DNA of 64,000 bases from Gnetum montanum (taxonomy: Eukaryota > Plantae > Gnetophyta). A program made the position numbers and the translations under genes. Each line of letters opens with the position of its first letter. Within the stretch, counting starts at the first letter, position 1. The notes under the pieces were generated by a model. That model had not been told where the DNA came from. It was given only the letters and a program-made list of their open reading frames with translations, and searched no databases. Below, piece by piece: positions 48-32,983 of this stretch. Where the stretch lies: assembly GCA_015680685.1 (NCBI GenBank), contig MNCI01001656.1, forward strand, positions 62,001-126,000. Direction: 5' to 3'.

Positions 48-1084
48 TGAGACACCACAAAATTTCAGCGTAACACTTTGAAACAAGAAAAAACCAGTGC
101 CTCAACACCTGGAGGTTCAAACATCAGACTAATGTGCATGAATCTTGTCATGCACACCAAGGCCATGCTCAAGTCACGCTACCAATGTACGTGCAGCGTG
201 CGCACAGCCTGCGTACAATGTGTGCAACCTTCGGAGCTTTCAAATCAGGTTAAACTAATCCTAATTTGAATGGGCAAGATTCCCTTAGGGCCCACTAATG
301 ATTATTCCAAGTTTCAGCATCTAAAATCCAAGATTTCAAGTCAAAATTGCACAAATCTTGCTACTCATGCTGAGGTCAAGCCTAGGTCACGTTGATAGCA
401 TGAGTCCAACGTGAGTCTTGCATGAGTCCAGCGTGAGTAACTCAAAATAGCCCTAAAATAGTATTAAAATAGCCTAATTTTGAGGGTGAAGGCCCACTCG
501 AGGTCCACTAATGATTGCTCCAGGTCCCAACCCTCAGAATTCTGATTTTGGACCTGAAAATACACCATTTTCAGCACTTACGCCCAGGTCACGTTGAGGT
601 CATTTTGACAGCATGAGCCCAGCATGAGTTGCCAAAATAACTTGAATCAAGGCACAAACAGGCTCAGACTTAGCTTGCAGGTCATCCACAAAGGTAGGCA
701 GCAGTTACACTTGAAAGATAGGTCTCAAAAAATCACAATTTGATGTGAAATGAACCATCCCAGCTTGCTCACACCTAGGTCACACTGACAACTTGAGCCC
801 AGCATGAGTTGCCAAAAGTGGCCTAAATCCAAGCACAGACAAGCTCAAATTGAACATATAGGATGTCCTCAAGGTTGAATAGTAGTTACACTTCAAAAAC
901 AAGTTTTAAAGGTGAAATCTTGATGTAAAATACATCATTTTTGGTCGATCACACTGAGGTCATGCCCAGGTCATGCGAAGGTCACGTTGGCAGCGTGACT
1001 CCAGTGTGAGCACTGGTCATGACCGAGCCAAAGCACTTTAGACACATGATGAGGGCATGCCAGGACAAGATCAACACACGCTGG
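48..1084 (+). repeat. Element B 5' LTR, left part (interrupted by element A)
   Basis: Colinear with 34503-35527. Contains about four degenerate ~190-210 bp subunits rich in AGGTCAYGC and GCRTGAG. Confidence 0.95.
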
Positions 1085-2387
1085 TGTAACAATAGAAAAT
1101 GTCAGTCACTGGAAACACCGAGTGAAATTATGTGTACACAGTTTTAACCCCGGATCTGTACGAGGGCCGTGCTAGAGAAAAAATGAATCTGAGGTGCCCT
1201 AAACAATCTTGTCGATTAGACAGGGACTTCCTCAATCAGTAAATTTGCTAATGACCATATAATGAGGCAACAACTTAATATGAAAACATGTTATCGATTT
1301 ACGAGAAAACGAGATTTGCTCTAAGATCAGATCTCGAAGGTAGTGAAGGTGGTGTAAATTATGCAAAATGATCGTAAAATTCAATATAAACTAGGTTCAA
1401 CGAATTGAACTTTGAACATGCATGATCCCGAGATCCGGGATCTCCCTTTATAGATAAATAGGATAAAGACAATGGGATTTACAAGCAAACTTCGGTTTGG
1501 ATGAGGTATCCACTACAAATAAGAAGCTAATCAGAGATGAAACAAGCAAAGGCTGATCTACCTTGTTCTAGCCAATCTGGGTGTAAGGGAGTTAGACTTG
1601 AAAGTAAAGTATCTACTAACTTGAAATCTCTGGTCAAAGGCTCATGTAGGTCATCGTCGATGCTCTTCTATTGCCAACTCTTTCTCGCCATCTTACCAGT
1701 CTTCACCAAGATAATTTGTCAATAATTTGCCAACAATTGCCAACTGCTACCAATCTCTGCCCCAAAATTGCCAACCCTTTGAGCATTGTCTACCGGGGTA
1801 TTTATAAGATTAGGGTTAGGAGAAGAACATGGTTTAGATGATGCATGTCCTTAGCCCACAAAATACCGTTGACTTGATGTACCATAGCTGGAGTTTGCAG
1901 CATTATGCTGCGCTACGCTCTAGAGCATAATATGTCATAATCTACCCTTGTTTTTAGTGCTACAGGATTTCTAGAGCTTCAGTAACAAACTATCTTGCAA
2001 ATACGCTGCAATATGCTAGGGAGCGTATCGTGGCGTAAGAACCGCTAATGTTTGAATTTTTCTATTTCTGTTGTTGTGATTAAATCAACTGTCTGCTTGC
2101 GTTACACTACGTTATGCTACATTACGTTGCATAGTTAACACGATGTAATATGCCAAAAGTTAAGATTTTCAATCATGGCCAGCTTGCAAAGTTGAAGTGT
2201 TGTTGCTACACATCCCTCATTTCTGTTCTATCTTCTAGAGTCTACTACGCTAAGTTGTGTAGCATAGCGTAGTGGGCCCTTAGTTGAAAAAAGAAGACTT
2301 TCTGAAATGTGCCACTTGTGAAAATCCTTTACCTAGACTTCGAGACTTTGCTAAATCATCAAGGTCTTGAAATTTCACGGTGTTTCA
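1085..2387 (-). repeat. Element A 3' LTR (1303 bp)
   Basis: TGTAAC...TGTTTCA termini; colinear with 16975-18278; adjacent to the PPT. Confidence 0.95.
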
Positions 2388-2402
2388 ATGGCCCCTCTTT
2401 GT
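2388..2402 (-). promoter_or_regulatory. Polypurine tract of element A
   Basis: Minus strand AAAGAGGGGCCAT lies immediately before the 3' LTR start TGAAACA; near-identical to the B PPT. Confidence 0.85.
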
Positions 2403-3590
2403 TGACATTTTGAGGGCTAGCCCAAGAGACGTCGATAAAGAATATGAAACACCACAAAGATAAAGACACCCACATCGTCCATTGGCTGCTGCTCGGATGT
2501 TTCTCTGTCAAGCCTGGAAGTACGAAGGTTGGGAGGGTAAGGAGTAGAAGAGGAATTTGACAGTTGTGAGGGAGGGAGGTTGGGGGAAGACTCAAGTGTG
2601 AGCAGGATATTTCGTAATCATGTCATTAGACAACTTCTCGTGGGTGTTTTCCTGAGAGGTTACACTGCTGCTATATTGTATATGTGGGGCATGCCTGGAC
2701 GAGTTGTGTTATGCCCGTATGGCCTGGATGAGTTGTGTTTCATCCATTTTGCCTATCTTTGCTTGCTCTTTTTTTTTCAGATGTGTTCCATGAGGCTAGT
2801 TGCATTATGCCAGTTCATGGTTGTGATGGTCATTTACGTGCAAAAGACTTCTTGTACGCTCACATTCTATACAAACAGGAGAAGAGAGTAAGGATGGCTA
2901 TAAGGATAGGGGGAGGAGAAAGTAAGATAAGGTGTTTGGTTGGGGGAAAGGTAGGGTCTGCACTCCCAAGTAGCTAGGCCAGTCTGAGCAGCCATCTCAG
3001 AACGCTGTGATACCTCACCCTCCTAGTGAATGCATTTTTGCACAACGCTATCGTAGTAAGTAACCTACAAAACATAATAAAGAACAGATAACAAAAGTAA
3101 TTGTCCTAATCACTGGGGAGGCTGTTGAAATAAGTGTCATCCAAATTGAAAAGGGGAGTGCAGGCCATGGAGAAGGAATCATAGCAAGAGGCACTAGTCC
3201 CTTTATTGATACCATGGCTCAGGAATTCACCGTCGATAGCCAGATTCATCTTATCCAATTGATTGGGCAAAGAACAAGTCAGATGAATCTGCTAAGCCAG
3301 GGCTTGGTGGTAGTGACGGTCAAAGGCAACCAAGGCTATGGGTGACCATAGTTTCCTTGGAGCTCCAAGTGATAAAGCTGACCCCAAGATTTGCAACTAT
3401 AGAGTGGTCATCATAGCGGGATCTCTGAGGGGTTAGTAGTATGCCTTTTGGTATATCCAATGAATCAGTAGCATGCCAGGAGGGTAGTAGCGCTGCATTT
3501 GTTCCAACATCCTATCTGTTCTACCTGGTAGGGATGCTGTGCAAGAATGATCAGGCTCACTTGCTTCGTGGGTAGTCTATTGGTAGCTTC

Positions 3591-3983
3591 TAGTTTTAAG
3601 TCTTGGTAGACACTTATTGCTGGTTTTAAGTCCTAGTAGACCATGGTCCTGGTTTAAAGTCTGGGCAGACTGAAGTGTGCTATTTTTATGTCATAGTAGA
3701 CAGTGGAAGAACTAGTTTATGATCCTAGCAGACCATGCTGTGGGTGTCAGTTTTGTGTCATGACCCAGGGACAAGTCTGTGCTGGTTTAACATCTCAGTA
3801 GACAGATGCTTACCTTGCCAGTTTCACATTGTGGAAAATAGTTGAAAAATTTGCCAGTTTAGCATCATGGCAGACGTGTGCAAGAAATGCCAGTTTTATG
3901 TCGTAGCTGACGTGTACAACACTGTCAATTTTATGTTGTAGTGGACATTTACTACAACACTAATTTTACATCATAGTAGATGT
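3591..3983 (-). repeat. 3' UTR array of element A: 12 units of a GTC-N6-GAC-NNWAAACY motif, period 29-36 bp
   Basis: Unit starts on the plus strand: 3591, 3621, 3650, 3681, 3713, 3748, 3783, 3819, 3855, 3891, 3926, 3961. The core is conserved and the linkers vary. Confidence 0.9.
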
Positions 3984-4014
3984 TTGTTACCTTGCATTTG
4001 AGCCGAGCTGATGT

Positions 4015-7000
4015 CTAGATGTGCTACTACTTCATGTACATGTGATTCACCAGGTTTGGGAGTTCGTTGTCGTTGATATCTACTAGCTTAAATGCTCTAT
4101 TGTCATATGCGTTGACGACTAGGAAAGGGCCTTCCCAACTTGCAAAGAATTTGCTCACTGGTTCACGAATGGCCTTAAGAACTAAGTCTCCTTTCTTGAT
4201 CGGTTGTTGATGCAAGTTGTAATGATGCTTCTATTTTTGCCTGTCCTGATATCTTTCAATGCTGTTGAGCATCTAGATGCATTTCTCCTAATCCGGGACT
4301 CATTGTGTTGAGTCTCATTTATAATCATGGAGAGGATCATCCATAGTGAGGGAACCTATAGTTCCAGAGGCAACACTGATTCAAACTTGTAGACTAGGCT
4401 GTAGGGTGTCCTACCGGTAGCTGTTCTACATGTTGTACGATAGGCCCATAACACATAGAAGATTTTTTAATGCCATTGTTTTTTGTTGTTGTTGAGCATA
4501 TTTTTCAGTAAATTGATGATCACCTTGTTTGTTGCCTCTACTTAACCATTTGCTTGTGAGTAATAAGGTGAGGAAAAAGATTGCTTGATACCAAGGTTAT
4601 CGTAGAAAGATTTTGTTTCGGTGCTACTAAATTATGGCCCATTGTCGGTCACAATAGTTATGGGAAGCCCAAACCTAGCTACTATGTTATCCAAGATAAA
4701 ATAGAAAAATTGTTGAGATGTAGTCTTTCATAGGGGAATAGCCTCGACCCACTTCGTGAAGTACTTAGTGGTAGTGATAATGAAGCTATGTCCTATAGAA
4801 GACTTAGGCATGATGGGGCCTATGATATCTAGTCCCCATCGTTGGAATGGCCAAGTGATTTGTATAGTATGCAATTCAGTTGGTGACATGTGTATTAAAT
4901 TTGCGTAACATTGGCATGTGTCACATGTCTTAACCTTGGTAAGGTAGTCTCATTCCATGTACAGCTAGTAATACCCTAAGCATATGATTTTAGCGGCCAT
5001 GGCTCGTGAGGCTATGTGTCCTCCACATAGTCCTTCATGGACTTCACTAACTATCCTTTGCACTTGGTTGTTATTAACGTACGTTAGCAATACCCCATCA
5101 AAAGATTGTCTCCATAGAGTATTGTCTCTGATGATGACGTATTGCTTGGCATGCTTGTGGATTGCATCTTTTTGTGTAGGTGTTAACTCGTGCAGTGGTT
5201 CGCCATGCAGAAGGTAGGTTTTAATGTTGTCGTACCATTTTGGTGTTCCTCCCGTATTTAGAGAAGAGATTTGCACCGCTTGAATGATAGGGTCTGTACA
5301 TTCTATCATTAAAGCAGGCAAGGTGGCAAACAAATGTGGTGGCATGTTTAAAGCTAATGTAGCTAGTGCATCAGCTACAGTGTTCTCATTACGCGGCACA
5401 TGCCGGACATCAGTCATTGTGAATTATTTTAGAAGATCTTTAGCCATGTCACAGTAGGGCTACAGGTGCACAGCTTTATAGGCATAGACTCCTATGATTT
5501 GATTGAGAATGAGCATCAAATCACTTCAGATTGCCATGTGTTGAATGTTGAGTTCCTTGGCTATTAACAGTCCTTTGAGGGGCCTCTCGTACTTTGCCAC
5601 ATTGTTCGTACAAGGAAACGCTAGGCGGTAAGCCAATGGGCAAACATCCTTAGGGGAGAGCGTAATGATGGTGGTAGCACTGCCACCTTTGGTAGTTGAA
5701 GCTCCATTGAAGTATAATGTCACTTTGAGGCCTGTTGATACAAGGCTTAAACTATGTACATGTTCATTAGGAAACTTAGGCTCTATCATGGCTTGATCGT
5801 TAACGAGTGATGTTACAAGCTGGTTAGCTATCGCTTGGCCTTTCGTGGAAGATTAGCCAATGTAGTGTAAGTCAAATTCTGTTGTGATGGCTTTCCAGTG
5901 GGCTATCCTACTACTCTCATATAAATTATTTGCAATGGCTGGAAAAATGTTATTTTTGCAAATTATGTTAACTTGGCTGTGGAAAAGATAGTGTCTACAT
6001 TTTTTTAGCGTAAACACCAATGCCAAATAGTTACGCTCTACTTCATTGTACCTCGTTGTGTATGCAAATAGAGCATGAATTAGATAATAAATAGGAACTT
6101 CTAACCCATCATCCCTTTTTTAGCACAACAATGCAGCTATAGAAACATATGAGTTTTCCAGGTAGATGTAGAAAGGATGATCCCTTTGTGGCAAGAAAAT
6201 CATTGGCAAGTGTAGCAGCTCTTTCTTTAGGTTGTCAAATGCACACTGGCAATCTGAGGTCCATTCGAAGTTAACTCCCTTCTTGAGCAGATATTGCATA
6301 GGAAGTAATTTGTCTTTAACTTCAAGATGAACCTCCTAATAAATTGTAACCTACCCTGCAACCCACATAGTTCTTTGAGGTCTATAGATGGTGCCAGGTT
6401 AATGATAGCCTTGACCTTGTCGGGGTCAACTTGTATGCTAGCCTCCGATACCACAAATCCCAACATGCATCTAGTCTTGACTCTGAACACATAGTTTCTT
6501 GGGTTGAGATGTAGTTTGTGCCTATGACATTGTTTAAGGATTATCTCCAGATCCTTAGGGTGATCTTCTGACTTTCTAGATTTGACAACTATGTTGTCTA
6601 CGTAGTCGTTCAATCTCTCTAAGAGGTAATCACTAAAGATGTATGTCATGGCATGTTGATAAGCTACTGTAGTGTTTTTTAGCTTGAAAGGCATCATGGT
6701 GTAACAGAAAGTGCCCCAGGGGATCATGAAAGTTGTAGTCAGTTGATGTTCTGGGTTAATACGAATTTGATTATACCCTAAAAACCCATCCATGAAGGAT
6801 AGTAATGCGTGATCTACCATTGTATCAATAAGTTGGTCAATACCTAGTAATGTGAAATTGTCCTTAATTGTTGCCTTGTTCAGATTGCGAAAGTCTGGAC
6901 AGATGTGTATTCCTCCCATTTTCTTAGAGACAACAACAATGTTTGACACCCAATCTAAATAATCAACCATGTGGATGAAACAAACTAGATATATCTTAGT

Positions 7001-7462
7001 GATTTCATCATGCACTACTAGTGCGATTTCAGGTTTATTCTTCTGTGCTTTCTATTTAACTACTTTGATATGAGGGTCTAAAACTATGTTGTGCTGTATT
7101 AGTCTCGGGTCTAAACCCAACATGTCTTCGTATGATCATGCGAATACTACAATGTTATTTTGGAGCACCTGAAGTATGTTGCTCTACATTTGTTGGTCAA
7201 GGAGAGAACTAACTTTCAGAGTTTTACTTTCTCCTTTGTGCATAACCATAGGGACCTCAGTAAGGGGATTCTCGGTCACATCACCTGCCTCCAGGTCTAA
7301 GGTTCCGGCCAAATGTTCTAGCCAGTCTAGGGATATTTTCGATGTTGCTATGGTTATGTCATAAAGGGAAGCATTAGTTCCTATCAGTGCAAGATTAAGC
7401 TGTCTAATAGTTTCCCAATAAGGACTTGTTAGGGCTAGGGGTGTAAGTAAAGCTTTATCCAT
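4015..7462 (-). pseudogene. pol: Element A pol: RT, RNase H, additional archaeal-type RNase H (aRH), integrase; contains stops and frameshifts
   Basis: RT: SFMDGFLGYNQI, YTMMPF, DYVDNIVVKS. aRH: LYFNGAS...CTNNVAKYE...HVPRNENTVADALA. INT: VHEGLCGGH, WPFQRWGLDIIGP, WEGPFLV. Confidence 0.95.
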
Positions 7463-8680
7463 TTACAAATTAACCTGCAAAAACTACCAAGAACGGAAGT
7501 TATTACATTTTTTTTTGTCAATCTAGTGAAATGATAGAAGGTTTTTTAGAGGTGTGTGTTAAAAAGGTTTCAAGTTTAAGGTCTTAGTAGACCATTACAA
7601 TATACACAGTTTGTAAGAAAATAGTAAGCTAGGTTTCCTAGATATTAGCGTAAGACTTTTTTGTGAACTATGATGAAAGGTATATCAAGGTGTGCCTAGC
7701 ATGTCAAAACAACTAATTTAGGATTTCGTACAGACCGTAGTTAATGCAACCGGATTACGAGATGATGAACTATAGGTTAGTTTAGGGTCTTTTCGGACCA
7801 CAATTAATGAGATATCTACGAGATTAATGTTGTGATCTTCACGCTTCATGTCGCATTGACATACTTCTATTTTAGGAAAGTTCCACATTGATCAGACATG
7901 AAAAATAGCTAGTTTCGACCATCATGTTTATAAGTCGATGGTTCATCCCTAAAGCAGACTGTAAACATCATGAATTTAAATTAGGCTAAAGTAGAAGGAA
8001 AGCAGAAGGAAGGCGTAAGTAGATGATTTTGTAAAGTTGTTTAGGCGTAGCCATGGCACTGAAGACCAAAGGCAAACATGCCAAATTGATGAAGATTGAT
8101 AAAGTGTAGGAGAGTTTGGAGCGGATTTCAAAGGCCTGAGTTGAGACTCAGGAGGCTACCCCACTTGCCCAGTAGGTCATTTTTTACCTTCCCTACATGA
8201 TTGTTATTTTCATTATTATGGCATCATAATTGTATTTGTTTTGAAGATGTGTATGATGTTGAGTGTTGATACCTACTTGTGCGGGCTAAGCTATTATAGC
8301 TTGTAGTATTACCCCCATCGCCGTTGTTAGAGACATACCTTGCACCGTTGTAAGGGTTTGGGTGATCTTGGGTAATATTGTACAAACACAATGCATAACT
8401 AGAGGAAACCAGATGTTGTACCCTTATGTAGTGTAAATAGGATTTCATTGTCTTGCCCGTAACGGTTGCATGTTATGCTGGGATAAAATGCGGTGTTACC
8501 TTTATCACCGTTGTCAGAGATAGACCTTGCACCGTGGCAAGGGTTTGGGTAGTTTTGGTAATGCATTTCTAGTGTAACATGTAATTTTCTGGGAGTTGAG
8601 GCAATGAGAACCTTAGTGTTGCGTAATGGATTTTTATTTCTAAGTTGTTTGTCTAATGGTAATGCATTTTATTGTAAAAG

Positions 8681-11600
8681 GATTATGCTAAAGCCCGTCC
8701 TGATCATCTTGGACATTGTTGGCATTTTGTGCTGTTTACATGTCCCCGTGCCCAATGTTCCTCCTCCTCATGATCGTGTAGGGGAGGAGGTGGTTTGGTT
8801 CCAAAAAGGTGCATAGGAGTTTTTGTAGTTTTTGTTGTGTAATTTCAGCATAATTATCTGGTTACATCTATTGGCTGAGACATCTGCCGCCATTCCGGAG
8901 ATGCTACTGGTTGGATCAACGCAGAGCATCTTAATGTTTCTGGTGGATGGTTCAATCGAAACTGTGAGGGAACAAGACCGTGAACAAAGTGCCAAGTGTT
9001 TGAGGCATTTATCTTAGATCTAGAAGATTCCTAGGTTTGATTGTTATCACGCCTACAACACACTGTTCGTGGCTCATCATCTCACAACCTATTTCCAGAA
9101 TCCACCTAGCATCATGTATTATGTAGGTAAGTAAGTGTTTTCATGGTGTTATGATGTGCTAACCATTGTTTGAATTTGTGTCAAGTATAAACAATTATCT
9201 ACATTCTATGATGTAGGTTTTTTTTATCAATGAGCATGGTCTCCAAGGTGATAAGGACATGTTATCTATGGCTGAAATAGCCATAAAGGAATTCACTTCC
9301 ATCGACAATGTGCATGCCGGTGTCCTAGGACAACTAGGATTTGAAATCCCACACTACCCTGTCCACTATGTCAGATTCTTTTCCAAGTGTAAAAGCTCTG
9401 GATGGCTAGATAAGGAGTGGACTTTGGATCGTCTTATCACCATTGAGGACGTGCAAGAGAAAATCCCACCATTTCTTTTACCCTTTGGATGCGGTAAATT
9501 ACGCTATGGTGGTCTACTGTATAATCTTATGGAATGGGGAAAATGTATGAAATTGTATTATTTTGTTGTGTTGTATAAACTGTTGTTTCATGTTCACAGT
9601 TAGGGAATCACGGGAGGTCACGGCGATAGCTTCTGGGCATGAGGTGAGCAGTCTCTTCTTAGGTTATGGTGACATAAAAAATACAAGATTGGCTCTTCCA
9701 TTGAGCGGCCCCAGCTGCCATAACCAATAAACTCTGGGAAGCTGGACTGATGGAGCTATTTTTGGCTATAACCCTTGATGTTACTGCAGCTGAAATGTTA
9801 ACCCTAGTTGACTCCTTCAGCAAAAATGCCAAGCATCTTGACATGCGCGTGCATAACGTGTGTGTGAGTTTTGATATTAACACTTGACAGTTCATCAACT
9901 TTTTCAGCGTTCCTTCTAATGGCCCTCCAGTAGAAGAAAGGTCAAAGAGGGGTTCTAAGCATCAAAAGGACATAGAAGAGTGGCTAGAGGTTAAAAAGAA
10001 ATCAAAAGACATCCTTGCTGATAAAATCAAGCTAGAGGTGGCTAATATCATTTATCCCCTCTTCTGAGCTTGTGCCTTCCCCAAGATGTTCTCCCAAGGA
10101 AGAATCCTTACCATAGAGTAGGCTCAGATCATGCGGGAGGTCATGGAGGAGGGAACATAGTATAATTGGGCTAGTTACCTCGCTGAAGATCTGCAGGCTA
10201 AAATGGTCAAGCTTCGCAAGAAGCTTGAGTCTCATTTCAATGTGCATTTCATCTTTTTCATAGCTTGCTTTTGGCATTTTGCCGAATTCCTGGTGGTTCA
10301 TAGGGATGGAGTCTAGGTGTAGCAAGATCGTAACTAGGTTTCCAAATCGTGGATTTCCTAGGTTTTTTCTACCATTCAATCCCAAGATTCCCCTGAAGGT
10401 ATCGGAGAGTTGCTTTCACTTACGACTAAGGATCTGGTGGCACCTCCCACACGGGGCCAAGAGAATGTGAGTGGGGTGCTCCCTTCTTACACCAGCAGTG
10501 TGTTGAGGGGGAAGTGCTTGGTAGTGAAAATAGTGACTTCACCAATTCAGCAGAAGAAGCATAATCCAACCGTGGAGTCTACTGGCCCGACTGGTGAAGA
10601 GGGAATTAAGTTTCATAGGAATGATCCTCTGGTTGGTAAGTAGAAGAATGCGTGATTAGTTTATATATGTATTATGCTATGTATAGATGTCATTGCATCA
10701 CGTAGCATTTGTAAAAAGTAAATAAAGTTTTGCTTTGGCTAACTGTGTTGTTTGACAAAGAAAGGAAGAGATGTAGAGGAGTTGATCCCTGAAACAGGGG
10801 CCCTAGTTTTATGGTGTGGAGAAGGGGCCCCAGTTTTAGAAGAGGAAGCCCTTGTTAGTAACATAAGCAGCACACAGGTTCCTATGCCTGAAGGAGAGAC
10901 AGGAGTAGAGGATGCTGAGGTCCTTTTGGATGAGCTAGGAAAAAAGAAGCGGTTTGTCACTAGTGAGTTTGACCTTTCCTCAGAGGGAAAACCTCACGCT
11001 ACTATCCTTGAGGATTTTGTTGAATTAATTTTTGCGTTATCGTAATGCCTCAATCGCCTTGATGCATATCGTGCTATGTCTAACTCATTTTGTTCACGTA
11101 GTAGGCACTTTTGATAATAGTGGTGCACCTTTGTCAATAACCCCAACTTAGCATTGGGATGAGACTCCTGATAAATTCACCTTTATGGAGGGCATCGTGA
11201 ACAATATGATCAATCACCTAGAGCGAATCGATCCTAAAATTGGTACATCACTATCATTACACAGGGATTGTTGGCATTGTGACATTGTGTTATTTTGTTG
11301 CATCTAACTGTTATTTTTTATGTTACAGGATGTCACCTTAGATGGGATCCCAAAGAGCCCATTGACATAGAAACTACCCTTGAACCCTCACTAGAGGTGA
11401 TCGAAGTGCCACGTAGCCTTTATGATGAAATGCATAAATGTATGTTATGCTTGGTCCACTCTTTATGGGAGTGTCAGAACCTCAACGAAGATCTTTGGAA
11501 GAGGTTGCAGAAAGAAGAAAAGGAGAAGATGGCATTAACTAATAGGGTTGAGGACGTGGAGTCTCAAAATGAATTTCTGCAAGCTCGGGAGACCAATGAT

Positions 11601-12483
11601 AAGAATTGGTAGATAGCTATGATTTACTATGCTCATTATTGGACGATTGTCAGAAATAGTGTCCAAGCCAACCGTGAGCTCATTGAGTAACAGATGCAAA
11701 TGGATCTCCTAGCCCAGAAGAACCAAGACTAGAAGGACTTCAACGTGAGGGTCCAAGCATGGGGGCAGGCACAAAAGTACCACAAGCATGTGTATAAGCA
11801 AGAAAGTGCTGCCTACCACCAACATTACAAGGATTCTGCTATTGAAGCATGGTCCCTTTGGCTATGCTTCGATGTCATCGGTGCTTTTGGGACGTAAGAA
11901 AAGTTTTAGGAGAAAGTGACAGTAAGTGCCTCCCTAGAGAGAGAAATAAGCTTCCCTAACGGGGAGACCACTATCCCTTCCTTCTTCCTTGAACCACCCC
12001 GATGGACTCTTGTGGAAAAGGGGAAGGTTAAGGCTGGAACTGATCTAGGAGATGGCGTTTGGTTTGAGCTCACCGAGGATGAGATCATGCAATGCTTGTG
12101 GGTTGGCTTGAAACAAATTCCTTTCACGGTTGGCATAGGACCATCATAGGTAAGTTGTACGACTATTGTATTCTTGTTATGCATAGTTTCAATGGTGATG
12201 CTAACATGTGTTTCATGTCAAATCATAGGATCGACATGAGGAGGGTCCTCATGAAGAGGAGTGTAATGGAGACGATGGTCTTCATGAAGAGGATCTCCAT
12301 GAGGAGGATCCCCACAAAGATGATCAACCTCGTGGCAAGATTCCCCATAAAGAAGAGCTTTGCAAAGAGGATCACCCCCATGAAGAGACACCACTCGAAG
12401 AAGGTCCTTATGAGGATGACCTTCATGAGGCTGAGGTGGAGTTGAATGACACAGGTGAAAGTGGTAACAAAGGAAATGTGTAG
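8681..12483 (+). pseudogene. Antisense intron-containing accessory gene of element A: FCP1/NIF phosphatase-like + PMD-like + coiled coil + His/Glu-rich tail
   Basis: Exon peptides include KPVLIILDIVGIL...VWFQKGA*EFL*FLLCNFSIIIW...YNTLFVAHHLTTYFQNPP; FINFFSVPSNG...YNWASYLAEDL; GCHLRWDP. Introns at 9131-9216, 9494-9599, 10636-~10758, ~11020-11101, 11243-11328, 12150-12228. Homologous exon by exon to 24020-27681. The first exon was not resolved. Confidence 0.85.
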
Positions 12484-12603
12484 CGTAGCTATATTGGCCA
12501 ACATTTTGTTGTAATGAAATGGATTAAAGGATAACATTCTTTGTTTTATGTGATATAAAGATTTTAATTTTTATGAAGTGAAACATATTGTTAGAAGGGT
12601 TAC

Positions 12604-12737
12604 ATGTTTTATGCCATTGCGGGCTGTTAATAGTTTAAGGTCATTTCGGGCTGGGCCATCATAAGCATAAAAGGGTATATAAAATTGCCAATTTTAGGCC
12701 ATAGCGGGCTGTAACTAGTTTAAGGCCATCTTAGGCC
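12604..12737 (-). repeat. Four stem-N6-stem motif copies downstream of the element A gag-PR
   Basis: GCC-ATTGCG-GGC (12613), GTC-ATTTCG-GGC (12640), GCC-ATAGCG-GGC (12698), GGCC-ATCTTA-GGCC (12724). Each is preceded on the plus strand by a TTT tract, as in the 3' UTR array. Confidence 0.75.
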
Positions 12738-12849
12738 ATAGTGCATATGAAAAAGCGTAATAAGGACAATGCAAAAATAGAGAGCGTAAATTGCATAACA
12801 GTAAATAATGTGGACTAATGTAACATGTTACGCCAACGTGTTTCATTGC

Positions 12850-15800
12850 TAACTCTGTAATTGCTTCTTGGTTATCTTTAGTTTTCACGACACGTATGGA
12901 CGAGGAGGCTTATTACAACATTCCTCTATGCTACCATATTCTCCCTGAAAATGTAGTTCAACCCAAGACAAGCTTTCATTGGCCATTGTGTCGGCCTATT
13001 TAGTTGTTGGGGTAGGGGTTTGATCTTCAGGGATTTCAATCTTCAAACCCTATTCTAGTTCCATGTTGTTAACCGCTTGCGGGGTCATCTTATCATCATG
13101 GATGATCACTTCCCCTCATATTTAGGGCAAGTGGATCTCTTGATGAATGGGTGATGAGACTGCTCTTAGTTCAGCCATCCAAGATCTCCCTAAGATTAGG
13201 TTGAAACCAAGAATCTCCTCGATGATGATGAACAATGCGTCTGTGGGGAATTGATCCCCTGCTACAAAATTGATGTGTACCGTTCCCTTGACTTGCAATC
13301 ATGCCCCGTTAAATGACTTCAAACATGACGTTGTTGTGGGATTGATCTGGTCAATCAAACCCAGTTTATGCACTATGGGATATGGAATGACATTGGCAGC
13401 TACCCCGTCATCTACGTGTACTCTCCAGATTCTATATTGACCAACGCAAATAGTGATGAACATGGGTGCTATTGTTACCTAACCCTTTTTTGGGTCATCC
13501 TTAATGGACTCATCATGAAATATTAGTTGGAAAGGCCATGATTGTTCAGCGGTGAGGGGAAGCATAATCAAATGGATTGCTTCTTCATCCGCTGGCAAGC
13601 TCTCATCCATGGGTATGGATGCTAACATGCGAACCATGGCTTCATGATATTTTTGAGATGTCATCAGCAAGTCATAGAGACTCAATGTTGTATTTTTCTA
13701 TTTAAGAGCCTGTTTAACTTACGTAAAAGCATTGAGAAGATCATGCCCACGATCTAGTTGCTTATTACCCTTCTTTTTTTCCATTCGTCCTAAGAGACAG
13801 ATCTCTTAGGGAGGAACAGTTTCTGGTTGAGGGTTGCATTTTATTGGGTTGGGAGAAGATGGTTGCATTTGTGTAGCATCATCTTTTTTAGAAGGTGAGG
13901 TCAAGGATGCTGAGGCGAGGGGTGTAGGCTTGGGAAACCCCAACGCTAGTCGATCCTTGGCTGTGTTACCCGTCATACGTCCTTCTCCTTTCTTGTTAGG
14001 TTGTGATTAGGACGTTGACTTAGAGATTTGCTCCTGCGTAGTAGGAGCAACTGATGGCTTTGGCACCTTGATGATAAAGGGTGTCTTAGGTGCGGGCGTG
14101 GGCTAAGCCATGGCTTTACTGATGGTGGGGTGTGGAACGAAGGTAGGAGATAGGACTCAGAGGATGAAAGGTTATCGCTGAGCTGCACGTTTCGATGTTG
14201 ATAGGCTTATCGTCTGAGACAGGAAAAGAGGCACATCGCCCTCCGTACCCACTACGTTGATAGTGTATCCTACATTATTTACGTTTAACAGGTCTTGGTA
14301 CACATGCATGGATTGGTTTTTTGGATAGATCAGACTATTGCAATCTAGGATCAGTTTACCTTGATCGATTATGCATTGAATGTCACTTTCAATGCCTAGC
14401 AGTAATCTGTGTCATGGCCACACATTTAGTGGTAGTCGCAAAAACGATCCAGCCTGAAGTTCTTGGGGATTGGCGGTTCATTAGGCAAGGCTAAGGAGGG
14501 GTTCTTAAGTAGCTCACAATGTCATCTGTGGCACTTCAGAGCCTCCTCAAACATCATCTTGTGTTGGATATGGCCAGTTCCCAGCAGTTTCTTTAGAAGT
14601 TCTGAAGGCTTTACAGGTAGAGCCATGTATTTTAAGTGATCTTTACACTCAAAATTAGGCTTCAGCTATGGTGGTACCTCAAGGGTGGGTGCTATTTCGT
14701 GATCGATGCTTTTTGAGCTAGTTGTGGTCTCAGCAGGTGCCATAGGTATTTTCTTATTGTTATTTTTCTTTTTGGCCCCTTTGGCCATGGCTGCTACTGT
14801 TGTTGTTGCAGCTTTGCCTTTATCTTTGCTCTTGTTGTGGGAATTTTTGTAGACCACATACACTGGATCTTTGCTAGCCTTGGTTGCATCTTGAATGCTC
14901 TTAGTCTAAGCGAAGGCTTGGCTAAGGGAGTAGGGACTGAGATAATACAGTTTAGACTTGATAAAGTTGTTGACTGCCCCCTTGAAGATTGCCAATAGAT
15001 GAGCCTCTATAATGGGTTCACAGATTTCATTCAAGGTGGCGCTCCACTGCTATATAAACTTTTGAATTGGCTCGAGCGGATCTTTCTTAACTCCCATTAA
15101 TTGGTCCAGCATGACTTCTAGTTTCAGTGTGTATTTGAAACAAGTCACGAACTAAGTTAGCAGCTCTTCTAGGGTTGAGATGGAAGAACGCAAGAGTGCA
15201 CGATACCAGTCTAGAGCTTTACCTATTAGGAACATGGTAAAGACACGGATGATGGTATGTGGTCATTGTTGAAGCAACAATGACTCTGACCTGAAGGTGA
15301 CTAGATGAGCGTTGGGATAGCCTTCCCCATTGTATTTTGTAAAATGGGGAAGTGGCATCCTAGGAGGTAATGACAAAACAGGCACTACCAGACTAACAGG
15401 ATCGTCATGGTAAAAATCCATGACCTATATTATGTTAGAATTGGAAACCTTGAGGCATTTAACCTCCTCAGTAAGGGTTTGAATAAGTTGANGAGGAGGC
15501 AACGACAAAACAGGAACTACCAGACTAACAGGATTGTCATGGTAAAAATCCATGATCTATATTATGTTAGAATTGGAAACCTTGAGGCATTTAACCTCAT
15601 CAGTAAGGGTTTGAATAAGTTGAAAGGCTTGATCTAGACCCATGGATGAAGAGGTTGTTTGTGAAATGGCAGGATGAGCCATGTTGGATTCTGGAATAGG
15701 GGCAATAGCTTGGCTTGTGTGCGATGTTATCAGGACTGCTCTTGTAGGTAGTGCTGCTTGTGACATACACCACCCGGTAGGTGGTGTAGATGGGGCAACA

Positions 15801-16657
15801 ACTGTTGACTGTGCCATGGGATATGTTGTTTGCGTAGCTGGGGGCACAGAAAATGGCCCTACAGTGGGGTTTAGTGCTTGCGGGAGTTGGCCTTGATTGT
15901 GTGGGAGATAAGACATCTGCGTAGACTATGCAACAAGAGGCAATGTATTTGGAGCCCACCACACAATGGTGGCAGGTCCTATCATTAATGGTTATGCAGG
16001 AGCAACAGCTGGGATGGTAGAAGCGGTATGTAACTGTGAAGTAGGCACTACGTGCACATGCGGTGATGTGGGTGTAGGTATACGATGAAACGGGTTAGTT
16101 AACTAGGATTGGAGAGGAATAGTTTGTGAAGGAATGACACTCGGGAAGGTAGCCGAAGAGAAGAAATGCTGATGGGCCACATGCGCAACACGATTGACGG
16201 TAGACAATGAAAGTGGCATAGTGATCATAAACAATAGATTTACACGAGACACCGTGGAGGGAAGGACCATAGCAAAGCTAGCATGAATGCCTCCCTCAGA
16301 GTGGGCATCTAGGTCATCCTACCCATCATGAAGCGCTTCATCATGAAAAAACTCCTCTCATTATTCTATTGATGCCCTGGCCATCAATAGTTGATCTAAG
16401 ATCCACTGTTGTTGATCCGTCAGGGGTATGAAAGTGCCAGGTGAAGGTATGAATTCCTTCCCGTTACAATAGATGAACTCGTATTCGTGTTTTTCTTCGA
16501 GTTCTTATGGATACATGGGCAAATTTGCCTCAAGTTTAGTGTAGAGGAAATTATAATGTTCCCTGCACTGAGCATGTTCCTCAAGCTCTTGGTTTTGGAG
16601 CCTGAGAAATCGGCATGGTCGCATTGGACTGGTTGGCGGCTTGACCATAGGAGGCAT
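12850..16657 (-). pseudogene. gag: Element A gag-protease (3' end approximate)
   Basis: N-terminal RFLRLQ..YNFLYTKLEANLP; capsid-like FTKYNGEGYPNAHLVTF; CX2HX4HX4C-type knuckle near 14400-14440; protease VHVDDGVAANVI...FNLILGRSW. Confidence 0.85.
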
Positions 16658-16940
16658 AACTTGCAGCGTCCAAGGGTTTTTGAGGTTAGCATTGTCAACA
16701 GTAGTGGTTGATGTAGCCTTTCTCTATGTAGTTTGAGAGTAATGACAACAAAGATAAAGATCACAAGGGTAAAGATGAGCTAAGACAAAAATGGACTTTC
16801 TATCCTGTAGGATTTTAGAGGAATCATCAAAGCGACCGATCTATACCACACAATCTCGTAAACAACCACAGAGGTATTACATTTATGTCAATCGAAAATG
16901 GGTACAGAAAACTTATAGGACTACCCATGAAATGCAGATT

Positions 16941-16968
16941 GGAGGTTCAGGCCCTCCTTCTAGCGCCA
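16941..16968 (-). promoter_or_regulatory. Primer binding site of element A, complementary to 28 nt of tRNA-Asn(GUU) 3' end
   Basis: Plus strand GGAGG-TTCAGGC-CCTCC-TTCTAGC-G-CCA has exact T-arm, acceptor strand, discriminator and CCA geometry. It lies 6 nt from the LTR. The tRNA identity is from recalled plant tRNA-Asn sequence. Confidence 0.85.
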
Positions 16969-16974
16969 GAAAAC

Positions 16975-18278
16975 TATAACGACAAAAAACATCGGTCATT
17001 GGAAACACTGAACGAAATTCCGTGTACATAGTTTTAACCCCGGATCCGTACGAGGGCCGTGCTAGAGAAAAAATGAATCCGAGGTGCTCTGAATGGTCTT
17101 GTCAATCAGATAGGAACTTACTCAATCAGTAAATTTGCTAATGATTGTATAATAATGCAACGACTTAATATGAAAACATATTATCGATTTACGAGAAAAT
17201 GAGATTTTCTTTGAGATTGGATCTTGAAGGCAGTGAAGGTGGTGTAAATTATGCAAAATGATCATAAAATTAAATATAAACAAGGTGCAATGAATTGAAC
17301 TTTGAACATGCACAATTCCAAGATCTGGGATCTCCCTTTATAGATAAATAGGATAAAGAGAACGGGATTTACAAGCAAACTTTGGTTTGGACAAGGTATC
17401 TGCTACAAACAAGAAGCTAATCATAGATGAAACAAGCAAAGGCCGATCTACCTTGTTCTAGCCAATCTGAGCAGAAGGGAGTCAGACTTGAAAGTAAAGT
17501 GTTTACTAACTTGAAATCTTTGATCAAAGGCTCCTATAGATCACCATCGATGCTCTTCTATTGCTAACTCTTTCTTGCCGTCTCACTAATCTTGGCCAAG
17601 TGAATTTGTTAAAAATTTTCCAACAATTGCCAACTACTACCAATATTTGTGTCAAAATTGTCAACCCTTTGAGCATTATCTGTCGGGGTATTTATAAGAT
17701 TAGGGTTAGGAGAATAATGTAGTTTAGATGACACGTGTCCTTAGCCCAAAAAATACAATTGACTTGATGTGCCATAGCTGGAGTTTACAGCGTTATGCTG
17801 TGCTATGCTCTAGAGCATAATATGTCATAATCTACCCTTGTTTTTAGTGCTACAGGATATTTAGAGCTTCGGTAACAAATTGTCCTATGGTTACGCTACA
17901 ATACACTAGGGAGTGTATCGTGGTGTAAGAACCGCTAATGCTTGAATTTTTCTATCTCTGTTGTTGCAATTAAATCAACTGTCTGCTTGCGTTATGCTGT
18001 GTTATGCTACATTATGCTGCATAGCATAACGTGGTATAATATGCCAAAAGTTAATATTTTCAATCATGGAAAGCTTGCAAAGTCGAAGTGTTGTTGCTGC
18101 GCATCCCTCGTTTCTGTTCTGTCTTTTGGAGTCTACTACATTGACCTGTGTAGTGTAGCATAGTAGGCCCTTAGCCAAAAAAAGAAGACTTGCTGAAATG
18201 TACCACTTATGGAAATCCTTTACCTAAACTTCAAGAATTTGCTGAATCATTAAGGTCTCGAAATTTCATGGTGTTTCA
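16975..18278 (-). repeat. Element A 5' LTR (1304 bp)
   Basis: Colinear with 1085-2387; the inner terminus CA has mutated to TA; adjacent to the PBS. Confidence 0.95.
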
Positions 18279-18283
18279 GCTGG

Positions 18284-19245: not shown

Positions 19246-19562
19246 CACGTTTTCCATCTCGATTAAACATTGAACCATACCAATCTATTTACGATTGTAT
19301 TAAATCCTGCAAAATTTTTACGTTGTTGCAAATACAGTAAATTTTGTAACTGTAGCTAAAAATATTAAGTATAGCATGCACACACTATGAAAATCCAACA
19401 CAGTGTACACACACTATAAAGCCCAACACTACGTACACATGCTGCAAAGCCTAACACTATGTATACACACTGCTACGCACACCACGCACACACACTGCGT
19501 CGCATTGCGCTTATGCTGCGCACAAGCTAGCATATGCACGTTCAGGTTGCGCTCATGCTAAT

Positions 19563-19690
19563 GCTTATGCCCAACTTGCTCAAGCTCAGCTTGCATACGC
19601 CTAGCTTGCTCAAGCTTAGGTTGCATATGCCCAGCTTGCTCAAGATCAGGTTGCATATGCCCAGCTTGCTCAAGCTCAGCTTGCATATGC
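19563..19690 (+). repeat. 30-bp tandem repeat (about 4 copies) in the element B leader
   Basis: Unit approximately GCATATGCCCAGCTTGCTCAAGCTCAGCTT. A looser ~27-bp CACACT-rich repeat precedes it at ~19380-19475. Confidence 0.85.
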
Positions 19691-19728
19691 TGCTCACACA
19701 AATTCAGCTAGCCAAGCTAGTTACACAT

Positions 19729-22700
19729 ATGGAATCTTCTGAAATCAAGGAAACATTGCTCATTTCTAATATTAATGTCAAAATCTCAAATCCTGTGACC
19801 GCAACTGAACCCATAGTCACCGTTGAAGAGATTAATCCTCAAGGGCCAACTTGTTGGTTTCTTAGGTTACAAGGAAAGGAACCCACATATACAATTCTCA
19901 CCCCTAAAGAATACAACTTCATTTGTGTAAAGATCCAAGCTAACCTGCCCATTGATTACATAGACCCTTTAGCATATGACATAATTCCCCGCTCTGAATC
20001 CCATCATGAACTCATATCCCAGCCCCTCATGGAAAGGAATCAAACCTCACGGCAACCCACCATGGAGCCTCAAAACAGAGACGAGGAAGATGATTTTGCA
20101 ACTCAATCTAAGCATGGGGATTCGTACCACACTCTCAGTCCTCATACTTATGCGAACCCATTATTCCACCCTTTCACGGGAGAGACCATGCCTCTTCACA
20201 CATTTAAAAGCACTCAAGCACCTGTCTCTCAATAGGAAGCACCCACCCCCATTCCTACTTTCCCTACAATCAATACCCAATTCAATGCGCCCATCCTTGT
20301 CATTCCTCCAATCACCACATTACCCTCTCTTCCATAAGTACAATCCCAGAAACTCTCCTCTCAAGCTAATATAGGAGCAACCTTCCCACCCCAAATAATT
20401 GGAATGCCCTCCGTAATACCCACTTCTACATCTACTCATTATGTACCACAAGTGCAAATCCAAGGAACACCCTTCACCACTTCAACTCAACAGGTTCAGG
20501 GTGTTTCCTCACAGCTTGTAACTGGGTAGTGGCCCGCACTTGTCATTCAACAGCATCAACCGGCTCATTACAGCATACCACCTGTTACAATCCCATCCAT
20601 GAATGTCCCTCAAGTACAAACATCAACAACCCTACAGTTATCTTTCCCACAAACTACACAACAATCTAACTATTATCATGCTCAATCTAACTAACCAGCT
20701 GGTCCACCTAGTGCCCAAGAATGAGTAGAGGCTAGAAAAATGATGCAAGCATTGACCAATGAGGTAAAGCATCTGAAAATTACAAACACTGAAGTAGTTA
20801 AGGTGATGGATTTTTATCAGGATGATCTGATTAGCTCTTCAGTGCCACCATTGACTCTACCAAAAGGAATTTCATTGCTGCAGTTGACCAAGTATAACGG
20901 AGAGGGAGATCCAAATGCTCACCTAGTGACATTCTGATTAGAGTGTCTATTACTTTAGGCTTGGCCTCATGCAATTCTGCGTGTGTTTGCCATGTTCTTA
21001 ATTGGAAGATCCTTACATTGGTACCGAGCCCTACCACATAACTCCATATCCTCTCTAGAGGATTTGTTACATCAATTCATTACCTATTTTAAGTATAACC
21101 TAAAGCCTGAAGCCATGCTAGATAGTCTAATTCAAATAAAACAAGCACCATTAGAGCCTGTACAAAAGTTCATCCAAAGATGGAGCATTGCTCTTAATGA
21201 ACTTCAAGAGCCTATCCTGGAAATGTATTTACTGACAATCCTCAAGAGTGCCATGAATGATTTCATTAAGTCAAAACTCTATTATCTTAGCGCTCGTACC
21301 TTGAGTCAAGCATTTGTCCAAATCAAAAACATAGAAGAGGCAGCACAAATAAGTCATGTCCTAGCTTACCAAACTTTTAAAAGTCAATATACGAGGAAAG
21401 ATAAGGATAATTCTAAAATGACAGTCGCAGCAGTGGCAAAGACAGCTCGACCCAACAATGCAGGGTAGAAAGGGAAACAACCCACTACCCCCACTAGTCA
21501 TGAAAGAACCATTCCTGCACCTACACTTGAACCCTCCTCTACCCAAATTGCTAACACAAGTCATACTCGTACCTTCGAACAAAAAGATCCTTCCCAGTAC
21601 ACACCCTTACCTGTGAAGCCCTCACAATTATTGGACCAACTTCTAAAGGCTGGGTTGATTCAACATAAGAAGATGTCCCCTACAACATCTCAAAAACACG
21701 ACCGATCCTATGAGTTGGTTAAAAACCCAACATTGGCAATGGCTAATTAACCCCCTGTCCCAAGATGTTTTAGGTTAGACAGATTTTGTGAGTATCACCA
21801 ACAATGTGGGCATGGAACTGATTACTGCTTCGCCCTAAAATAAGACATACAACATATGATTGACAGAGATGAGATAGTCTTTGATGAAGCCAACCTAGTA
21901 AGACCTTAAAATTAGTCTATGGGGGTCTACAAAGATCCTCTTAACACCAAAGAGTCACCCTATGTGATTAACATGATCCATGTCGGCAATGAACAAGACA
22001 TCCCAAAGCATTTTTTCATTTGTGTGCCTGCTAAAACTGTGTCTACACCAACACCTCCACAAGCTCCTTTTTCTACATATACATATCCTACATCGTGAAA
22101 ACCATTCATCATCCAAGTGTACCCTGAGGTTGCAATAGCAAATGTGCCATCGCAAACTTGACCCATTCCATTTGTAATTCAGGTGCCAAAACACTCTGAT
22201 GTGTAACCCCCAACAATTCCCCCATGACCCTCACGAGAACACCTCACTGATAGAATGACCAGAGAATGTTTGGCCAAAGAACGTCATGGTCATCAGTTAG
22301 GATCACCAAAACCCACATTATTGAATGCTGTCCCTATGATTCCAACTACTGATCAACCTAGCATGAGTCATCAAGACAAGAACTCGAGAGTGTCTAGCAT
22401 CCCAAATCTAACAGCTACAATTAATAACGTAAAAACTCTTTCGTAAGAGATACAAATGTTGGGTCAAATGGATCAAGTTTCGACAGGTAAAAACATTCCA
22501 AATAGAAAATACTTGGCCAGTGCCCTGACCCAAGTTACGTAGGCCTTAAAACAAAAGAACACCTCTGTAAGCCTATATGACCTAGTGATGACCTCCCTAG
22601 TACATTGGGAAGCTCTAGTGCATATGTTGACTTCAATCCCTATTAGTGAAGACCTTCCTACAAATGAACCATCCATTTATGTTGTATTATCTCCACATCA

Positions 22701-23445
22701 AAAATCGAGGTCCACATCTCTAGGATTTCATGCCAATGACATTAAACAAGATGAAAAAATGGGAGAGGTCACCACTGCCCCTATGTTTATAACAATACAA
22801 GTTAATCAATTTAAGATACATTGGGTGCATGTTGATGATGGAGCAGCAACAAATGTGATACCTTTTCCTATGATTAAACGATTAGGCCTTCCGAAACAAA
22901 TACGGCCAACAACAACATCATTCTTGGAATCTTTCAGTGGTTCTCATGTCATGGTAAAAGGCATGGTCACCTTGGATTTCATAGTAGGGGACCAATTCCC
23001 CATGTCAGTCAAATTTGTAGTCATAGATGAGATGCTGAGGTTCAATCTGATTTTGGGACGGCCTTGGTTAGCTTAATTAAAAGCCATATCCTCACCGATT
23101 CATCAAGAAATCCACCTACCATATGAGGGTGATGAAATCATCATACACGGGGATGTAGCAACATCACTTACTTCCTCACACGTAGGAATGAACCAAGGAT
23201 CAGAGGTTGAATTATCTAAACCTAAGCAAGACACTGCTAGTGAAACCCTAGACATTGGTCAATCTCTGACCCGCGACCTTCCTAAAACAGAGGAAGCATC
23301 ATAAGAGGCAGACATAGGAGCCATTCCCAAAGATGTCCCTTGGTCAAAACTACCATTTGACATATCCAGTGAGGGGGATGATGAGTACAAGATCATGCTC
23401 GCACATCCCACCCTTCATAGAAAATTACAAAAGTTAAAGAAATAG
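19729..23445 (+). pseudogene. gag: Element B gag-protease
   Basis: WFLRLQGKEP; LTKYNGEGDPNAHLVTF; SLHWYRALPHNSISS; CEYHQQCGHGTDYC knuckle; protease VHVDDGAATNVI...FNLILGRPWLA; many in-frame stops. Confidence 0.9.
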
Positions 23446-27000: not shown

Positions 27001-27681
27001 AATTTCCTAGGATAATTGACAATAGCACCCTTGGTTTGATCTAGCACCACAACACGAAGAGTGGGGCCCATCATGAATGCCTCCAAGGCTATGAGTGCTA
27101 AGGGAAGCCCACTATCATCCTCATGCAATCCATAATCATCAACATGGAGCCTGCAAAGGAAAAGTATTCATACGTAAACAATGATATAACATTAAAGGAA
27201 CCAAAGTTAAGATAAGTATAAAAGAGCATACCTATCTATTCTGTACACTGTTCTAGGAGGATTTTGGAACAACTTATGCACATGGAAAGCTAGAAAAAGA
27301 GTGCTACTACTGTTGTAATGGCTGCAAGATGATAATCTCCACACACGGGTCAAAGGACATGTGGATCTAGGACCTTTAGGAACACCTCCCTCGACTGTAT
27401 ATAGTCCCTCGTCTATGTCAAGAATGAAGGCTAACATGCCTCATGTTGAGCCAGGTAACATGGTCTCAACAATATCACGAGTCAGCTGCTCGCTCAAGTG
27501 AGACCATATGACAATGTTGAAATTCTGCAAAATAAATGATAGAAATGTAGTAACATTTGGATGAAACCATATTACATGCTGCCCGATCTGCATGTCATAA
27601 CTAGGCATGTTCGGTCCCAAAAGGCCAAACCAAGATAGCACACCAACAAGTTCAACCACCAGGAGAAAAGGCTTAAGTCCC
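24020..27681 (-). pseudogene. Antisense intron-containing accessory gene of element B, homolog of 8681-12483
   Basis: KPFLLVVELVGVL...IWFHPNVTTFLSFILQNFNIVIWS...YNSSSTLFLAFHVHKLFQNPP; FFDLFGVPVDGAKV...HYDWAQFLGLGIYGEI. GT-AG introns at 27151-27231, 26780-26878, 25677-25786, 25315-25397, 25017-25110, plus ~24113-24238 with a mutated donor. Confidence 0.85.
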
Positions 27682-32500: not shown

Positions 32501-32983
32501 ATGATGGCATGAGCAGTTAATCTATGCATTATGGGCATACTGAACAATGCATTGAACGTCCCAGGTAAGACACCATATAGCCTTGTATATGGATCTAAAG
32601 TTTTGTTACCCTTGGAGTTACAGGTTCCCTCATTTCGGACAACACTCTCCAGCCTCCTTGATGAAATCCAGAACAATGAGCTATGTGTTGCTGACCTTGA
32701 CTCGATGGAGGAAGAAAGAGTACGAGCCCTTGATCAAATCGAATGGTATCAGAGAAAACAACGGTGACGCCATCAACATAATCCACATAAGTGTCTGATC
32801 AAGGACGGTGACCTAGTTATTAAGGTGGTCCACAAACACTTGGATAAATTCTCAGCTAACTAGGAAGGATCTTACTTAGTCACCAAGGCATATGATAATG
32901 GGGCATTCAAAATCACCAACATGAATGGAAATGAATTCGCCAATCCTACAAATCACATGTATCTAAAACCATACTACGTTTGA
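29532..32983 (+). pseudogene. pol: Element B pol: RT-RH-aRH-INT
   Basis: SFMDGFLGYNQI, DYVDEISVKS; aRH LYFDGAS, TNNMVEYE, GDSQLVINQV; INT WPFQRWGLDIIGP, EYFTKWVEAIP; ends MYLKPYYV*. Confidence 0.95.

Follow-up and report, generated by a model that had tools for sequence, protein, structure and literature searches.

Why does an exon resembling a phosphatase lie between the protease (PR) and reverse transcriptase (RT) of a plant LTR retrotransposon, and can its product still act as an enzyme? The question is raised by positions 8681-9130 (+) of a 64,000-nucleotide window of the Gnetum montanum contig MNCI01001656.1, to which all coordinates below refer. The original prediction, made from the sequence alone, described an accessory protein that begins with an FCP1/SCP-type (NIF, HAD-fold) domain with degenerate catalytic motifs. 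Our results point, with good probability, to a spliced accessory gene, antisense in an element of the Tat group, with a NIF domain of the DxN subfamily captured from the host, catalytically dead and serving to bind proteins within a multi-domain regulatory protein. The homology, the position, the motif states, the spread through the family and the third-position-biased divergence are the observations behind this explanation.

The self-comparison of the window showed that the exon does reside in an LTR retrotransposon, as had been proposed. Element A (1085-18278, with RT and gag on the (-) strand) is bounded by LTRs of about 1.3 kb with a K2P distance of 0.157, the 3' LTR at 1085-2387 (-) and the 5' LTR at 16975-18278 (-), and by the 5-bp target site duplication (TSD) GCTGG at 1080-1084 and 18279-18283. 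A PBS-like motif common to element B is found at 16952-16968 (-). The gag and protease of A, recognised by homology to B, occupy approximately 13000-16800 (-), and RT-RH-aRH-INT, in the dual RNase H layout of Tat, approximately 4000-7460 (-). A is inserted into element B (48-36465 (+), LTR K2P 0.131), whose 5' LTR it interrupts; B has the opposite orientation and carries gag, PR at 22543-23200 and RT-INT at about 29530-32900. The LTRs, the 5-bp TSD and the order gag-PR-RT-RH-INT are those of Ty3/gypsy Tat elements. Pfam matches were obtained for gag and protease in B and for RH, the additional RH and integrase in A, and the position of PF13456 (aRH) between RH and integrase of A corresponds to structure #1 of PMC10508981, which the available part of that paper assigns to plant Tat elements of hornworts, clubmosses, ferns, some gymnosperms and angiosperms. 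The RT was recognised through its homologues, and the top matches are just about 47-50% identical, so the host group is thinly represented in databases. A and B are two diverged Ty3/Tat elements, whose RTs share 64% identity.

Other retrotransposon sequences are also present in the window. A partial third copy, C, extends from RT to integrase at 36480-40173 (-) and is about 80% like B; no match to the accessory gene was found upstream of it, and C is either truncated or naturally without the gene. An AG followed by a close ATG stands at the same place before the RT in A (7460-7480 (-)), B (29515-29535 (+)) and C (about 39445-39465 (-)), and RT-INT may be a separate ORF, or splicing that removes the accessory-gene interval may connect it to gag-PR. 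A different Ty3 element is represented by two decayed copies, 65% alike, one at 41586-42115 (-), with gag, and one at 61500-64000 (+), with gag plus protease-like and RT sequence. The gag of A contains a 130-bp direct duplication (15362-15623), which flanks an isolated N at 15492 and may be an artefact of assembly, and the start of gag in B consists of 15-bp tandem units (19562-19711) encoding Ala/Gln-rich repeats. A run of 584 N (53949-54532) interrupts an AT-rich stretch, where the long ORFs are artefacts.

The gap between PR and RT measures about 5.5-6 kb in both elements, and tblastx revealed collinear reading frames on its opposite strand. In A and B alike, the accessory gene occupies this interval in the same orientation, antisense to the flanking PR and RT. 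In A, the NIF/HAD-fold exon (8681-9130 (+)) contains four stop codons and would be delimited by an acceptor AG at 8679-8680 and a donor GT at 9131. A putative exon 2 (9217 to about 9490 (+)), which has no family match and is out of frame at its start (a T run), is accompanied by a putative exon 3 (9600 to about 10635 (+)), a domain likewise lacking a family match and 35% identical to its counterpart in B. Further candidate exons at approximately 10760-12450 (+) comprise an acidic stretch, a coiled-coil-like exon (11328-12150 (+), 34% identical to B) and acidic 15-bp repeats; these tandem units, at about 12235-12430, end the gene of A and encode His-Glu-Glu/Asp repeats. In B, the NIF/HAD-fold exon occupies 27232-27698 (-) and has one stop codon, and the other presumed exons lie at 24200-27150 (-). 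The peptides originally quoted were located in A at 8685-9131 (+) with four stops and in B at 27683-27222 (-) with one.

The splice dinucleotides GT and AG occur at matching places in both copies, and the first junction of B is in frame; the accessory gene is likely spliced. No spliced read was found among the joints listed (15 of 129 across the gene, and 4 of 4 on the NIF exon, which were DNA). Since an AG acceptor stands directly upstream of the NIF exon in both A and B, this exon is probably not the start of the protein, contrary to what had been predicted, and a search upstream of it for an earlier exon found none. A pair of 92-bp repeats (8280-8371 and 8467-8558, 73% alike, 187 bp apart) lies right before the NIF exon and could belong to an antisense promoter or to a 5' exon region. 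Between A and B, the NIF exon is 34% identical across 145 codons, and all three accessory exons compared (NIF, exon 3 and coiled-coil-like) lie at 34-35%, as compared to the 64% of RT. The differences at codon positions 1, 2 and 3 were 0.49, 0.37 and 0.70 in the NIF exon (chi-square p=5e-4 for the third-position bias) and 0.27, 0.19 and 0.58 in RT. An excess at third positions was found in three of three exons, and this divergence argues for selection on the accessory gene after the A-B split. For exon 3, none of 1677 candidates of a word-based protein search was confirmed, Pfam gave no match, and an 84-residue part had no usable Atlas match. A PMD/Transposase_32-type identity of exon 3, suggested by eye, was rejected: Pfam gave nothing, HHalign against a DUF7745 ORF returned a probability of 0.7%, and the model reached a pLDDT of 32. 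A DUF7745 ORF found upstream of an RT on metagenome locus L024 (3133-3657 (+)) is not similar to exon 3.

Searched with Pfam PF03031 alone, B gave E=0.034-0.039 (14.3 bits, under the cut-off of 21.8 bits) and A gave nothing; the only PDB match of B was UBLCP1 (E=0.17), and a word-based protein search with the B exon confirmed none of 30 candidates. A two-sequence profile of A and B was then run against 1.84 billion proteins at a threshold of E<=1e-3. It returned 60 matches, the best at 8e-14 over profile positions 4-146, and 59 of them pass the Pfam NIF cut-off; the remaining one is an fn3 repeat and a false match. A profile of 65 host domains scored B at 77 bits and A at 58 bits over the whole core, against 7 bits for the next-best place in the window, scores that are partly circular because these domains were picked by the A+B profile. 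The third NIF match (62269-62352, 7 bits) was discarded as the antisense of another element's gag. The joint signal is far above chance and, at the level of sequence, confirms that the exon at 8681-9130 (+), though decayed, belongs to the NIF (PF03031, HAD-fold) family. The Pfam check that had been proposed thus stayed under the cut-off with single sequences, and the homology emerged with the profile of the pair. The NIF/HAD part of the original label holds, and the FCP1/SCP part gives way to the DxN subfamily: the nearest homologues belong to a C1271.03c-like DxN group, which is without characterised members and in which motif I is D-x-N in 55 of 65 host domains. Of 20 matches looked up, five were nameless, one came from Creolimax and one was the fn3 false match; the other named ones were plant proteins yet to be characterised, from Sphagnum, Asteraceae, Lamiales, a grass and others, one of them labelled C1271.03c-like. 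By sequence, UBLCP1 is the closest protein of solved structure and ranks above SCP1.

The AlphaFold model of B (pLDDT 86) has a HAD Rossmannoid fold, and Foldseek aligned it with CTDNEP1, SCP1, TIM50 and FCP1 at a probability of 1.00 and E values of 1e-6 to 1e-4 (3e-6 for TIM50), with 13-16% identity to SCP1 and FCP1 and 11-19% across the FCP1/SCP1/CTDNEP1/UBLCP1 group. NIF-like proteins of giant viruses also match this fold. The structural comparison called for at the outset was therefore positive with an alignment-driven model: of the 39 sequences in its alignment, 37 are NIF matches of the A+B profile, and the model is not independent of that profile. The domain of the element appears to stop short, the part after the NPP motif being undetected in exon 2, which scored below background against a C-terminal NIF sub-profile; the C-terminal part is either lost or too diverged. 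That exon 2 completes the domain had been suggested by eye, and fails this profile test. In a quick tree of 67 rows, all kept, A and B were sisters (support 100) on a branch of 3.2 substitutions, on which no donor gene could be placed; the tree with host NIF genes, as proposed, thus supported the sisterhood and left the donor out of reach. A metagenome scan with the A+B NIF pair confirmed none of 289 stretches. An RT scan yielded 47 distant loci (full-length identity at most 46%) with no NIF, exon-3 or coiled-coil match at E<1, so relatives outside the host group were not found in this poor sample. Metagenome contig L006 carries Sin3-type PAH/co-repressor ORFs at 538-2145 (+) and 4960-5586 (-), 4-9 kb upstream of a distant Ty3 RT, which may be a host gene neighbour or another capture.

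The HAD motifs I-IV have established catalytic roles, and catalysis needs the general acid/base Asp and both Mg2+-binding Asp. In A, these motifs lie at 8712-8723 (I), about 8859-8864 (II), 9003-9005 (III) and 9072-9077 (IV), all on the (+) strand. Motif I is DIVG in A, with D-I-V also the majority state of the A family, and ELVG in B, so neither copy has the DxD of active phosphatases, and the DxDx(T/V) signature of the FCP1/SCP CTD phosphatases is missing from both. Motif II is Leu in A and the expected Ser/Thr, as Ser, in B and the A-family majority. The Lys of motif III is replaced by Arg in A and its family majority and by Cys in B, and the acidic pair of motif IV by AH in A and its family majority and by AF in B. 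Besides D-x-N, the host domains keep Ser/Thr in 65/65, Lys in 65/65 and DD in 52/65. Because the second Asp of motif I and both Asp of motif IV are missing, the NIF domain of the element is predicted to be catalytically dead. The degeneracy first noticed in motifs I and IV is thereby borne out.

Public sequence data were aligned on A to separate the decay of one copy from the state of the family. Two DNA runs gave 24,865 and 20,542 contigs over the accessory gene, with 30/30 bins covered; over the NIF exon there were 2,965 and 3,007 contigs, from two differently labelled organisms. These counts indicate that the gene is present throughout a very abundant, high-copy family. The majority test (at least 50% share, depth-weighted, contigs at least 80% like A) took in 40 of 41 differing places and describes A-like copies alone, variants under 50% being invisible to it and the subfamily of B lying outside the sample. 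Among these 40 places, the majority changes of the DNA runs leave the codons of motifs I (one synonymous change), III and IV unaltered, and the complete change-type tallies of the DNA runs contain none that could yield Asp at motif I +2 or at motif IV. Three of the four stop codons of A are minority states, with another letter in most of the depth. The majority states therefore indicate that the stops are largely copy-specific decay and that the dead site is the family state. An ancestral loss of catalysis, as suggested originally, agrees with its being common to A and B and the majority state of the A family; a consensus with intact Asp was not seen among the majority letters of about 3,000 contigs per run from A-like copies. 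At the RNA level, 220, 113, 24 and 1 reads were found in four runs, mostly less than 90% alike, i.e., from other copies. The first mates of X11 fell mainly on the minus strand and those of X14 and X12 were mixed, X11 alone being clearly strand-biased. By the convention of most stranded libraries, the bias of X11 hints at RNA in the sense of the accessory gene.

Extra antisense ORFs have been described in Tat/Ogre/Retand elements. In the available parts of the sources, their place is either after pol, before the 3' LTR, or ahead of gag, and their domains are PMD or TRP28 (Transposase_28) (PMC4408406, PMC11963269, PMC6317226, PMC7264820). Like those ORFs, the accessory gene is antisense to gag-pol, occurs in most copies of the family and has a coiled-coil-like region; unlike them, it sits between PR and RT, is apparently multi-exon and includes a recognisable host-type NIF domain. 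No Pfam match to PMD (PF10536) or TRP28 (PF04195) was obtained in it. A precedent for capture is that of Ogre-related Gypsy elements of orchids, which acquired AlkB/2-ODD, as stated in the excerpt of PMC9289625; there, too, a host enzyme domain was fixed in a Tat-family element over many replication rounds. That capture is recent and active with its cofactor residues kept, according to the same excerpt, whereas the NIF domain has diverged strongly and no longer has its catalytic residues. In Arabidopsis silencing, transposon-derived PMD proteins associate with the putative phosphatase PP7L (PMC7156037, in part), which is a loose conceptual parallel only, PMD not being found in the accessory gene. 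Titles and abstract openings, within an incomplete coverage of the literature, contained neither a NIF domain in an LTR element nor an antisense PR-RT gene, in agreement with the original remark that this domain was unreported there. The terms eORF, antisense and phosphatase were absent from the available part of PMC13468544, and the supplementary text of PMC6317226 (17,418 characters) gave no match; its eORF domain table may lie outside that text and could bear on novelty. The known kinds are the Tat extra ORFs and the orchid AlkB capture, and what appears new here is the NIF domain and the unusual PR-RT position.

The DxN subfamily of plants and other eukaryotes (Sphagnum cluster P0121, GFP79773.1) is the best match over the whole core and has the same motif layout. 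D-x-N, Lys and DD are kept in 55, 65 and 52 of its 65 host domains, respectively; the corresponding residues of the element are D/E-x-V, Arg/Cys and AH/AF, and its C-terminal part went undetected. A fungal NIF group with DXNXT is listed among candidate pseudophosphatases in the accessible portion of PMC13216928, and it is likely the same subfamily as the C1271.03c-like/DxN proteins. The same source, as far as available, presents TIM50/TIMM50 as a HAD-family pseudophosphatase that uses the NIF fold without the canonical DxDx(T/V) as a binding domain (PMC13216928). TIM50 is a mitochondrial import receptor, and the domain of the element has no sequence-level sign of descent from it. FCP1, SCP1, CTDNEP1 and UBLCP1 are active DxD enzymes. 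They and the NIF-like phosphatases of giant DNA viruses have the same fold as the domain of the element, and the viral matches show that mobile genomes acquired the NIF fold before.

What we infer in this explanation is that the gene is spliced and has retained its introns, that the domain came from a host and no longer binds Mg2+ or catalyses, and that it has a binding role. In the proposed sequence of events, a piece of a host NIF gene of the DxN subfamily would have entered an ancestral Tat element long ago in antisense orientation. Introns would have been kept because antisense introns stay unspliced in the genomic RNA, and the captured piece would have joined a multi-domain accessory protein. 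The donor was probably non-canonical before capture, since the nearest homologues are of the D-x-N subfamily, and probably weak or inactive already, since the fungal DXNXT group is counted, in the part of PMC13216928 available, among candidate pseudophosphatases. The remaining catalytic residues would then have been lost under selection that maintained the fold, leaving a dead NIF domain that would act as a binding module, as in TIM50.

Could the domain still work as a phosphatase through an atypical catalytic set, or be active in a minority subfamily? We consider this highly improbable: the nucleophile position is Asp in the A family and Glu in B, human TIMM50 and yeast Ppn2 are reported active despite altered motifs in the available part of PMC13216928, and variants under a 50% share lay below visibility, but both copies and the family majority lack the general acid/base Asp as well as the two Mg2+-binding Asp. 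Very doubtful, in our judgement, is that a host gene or a gene of a nested DNA transposon was inserted a single time into the PR-RT interval and travels with the element without benefiting it. The introns would point to insertion at the DNA level over RNA transduction, the gene diverged faster than RT (34% vs 64% identity), and no sign of it was seen in partial copy C. Against this stand the third-position excess in all three exons compared between A and B, the splice sites preserved in both copies and the occurrence of the gene throughout a very abundant family; C may be a mere truncation, and no long terminal inverted repeats were found flanking the gene.

A further reading takes the NIF domain as a putative decoy or reader of the phosphorylated Pol II CTD or of another phosphoprotein, steering the transcription or silencing of the element, and we regard it as improbable; the CTD would be just one among many candidate partners. 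The predicted fold is in common with SCP1 and FCP1, and the Ser of motif II in the family majority, together with the basic residue of motif III in the A family, could hold a phosphate. On the other hand, the closest kin are the DxN subfamily instead of the CTD phosphatases, the fold matches to SCP1 and FCP1 have 13-16% identity, neither copy retains the metal-binding DD, and motif III of B is Cys. A broader conjecture, that an ancient dead-NIF phosphoprotein-reading decoy of the Tat lineage in a poorly sampled plant group engages the host transcription or silencing machinery as a counter-silencing protein, is rather unlikely as well. The captured, dead DxN-type NIF domain serving as a binding module remains our preferred reading.

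Most extra genes of plant LTR retrotransposons have no counterpart outside transposons, as given in the excerpt of PMC7264820, and their origin and function are open questions; the NIF case offers a traceable host-type domain and a readable active site. The layout is unusual: a very abundant family carries an apparently intron-containing gene in its PR-RT interval, on the antisense strand. The predicted dead NIF domain provides a testable handle, namely which host protein it would bind and whether binding helps the element. The DxN NIF subfamily, so far uncharacterised, is now tied to transposon biology.
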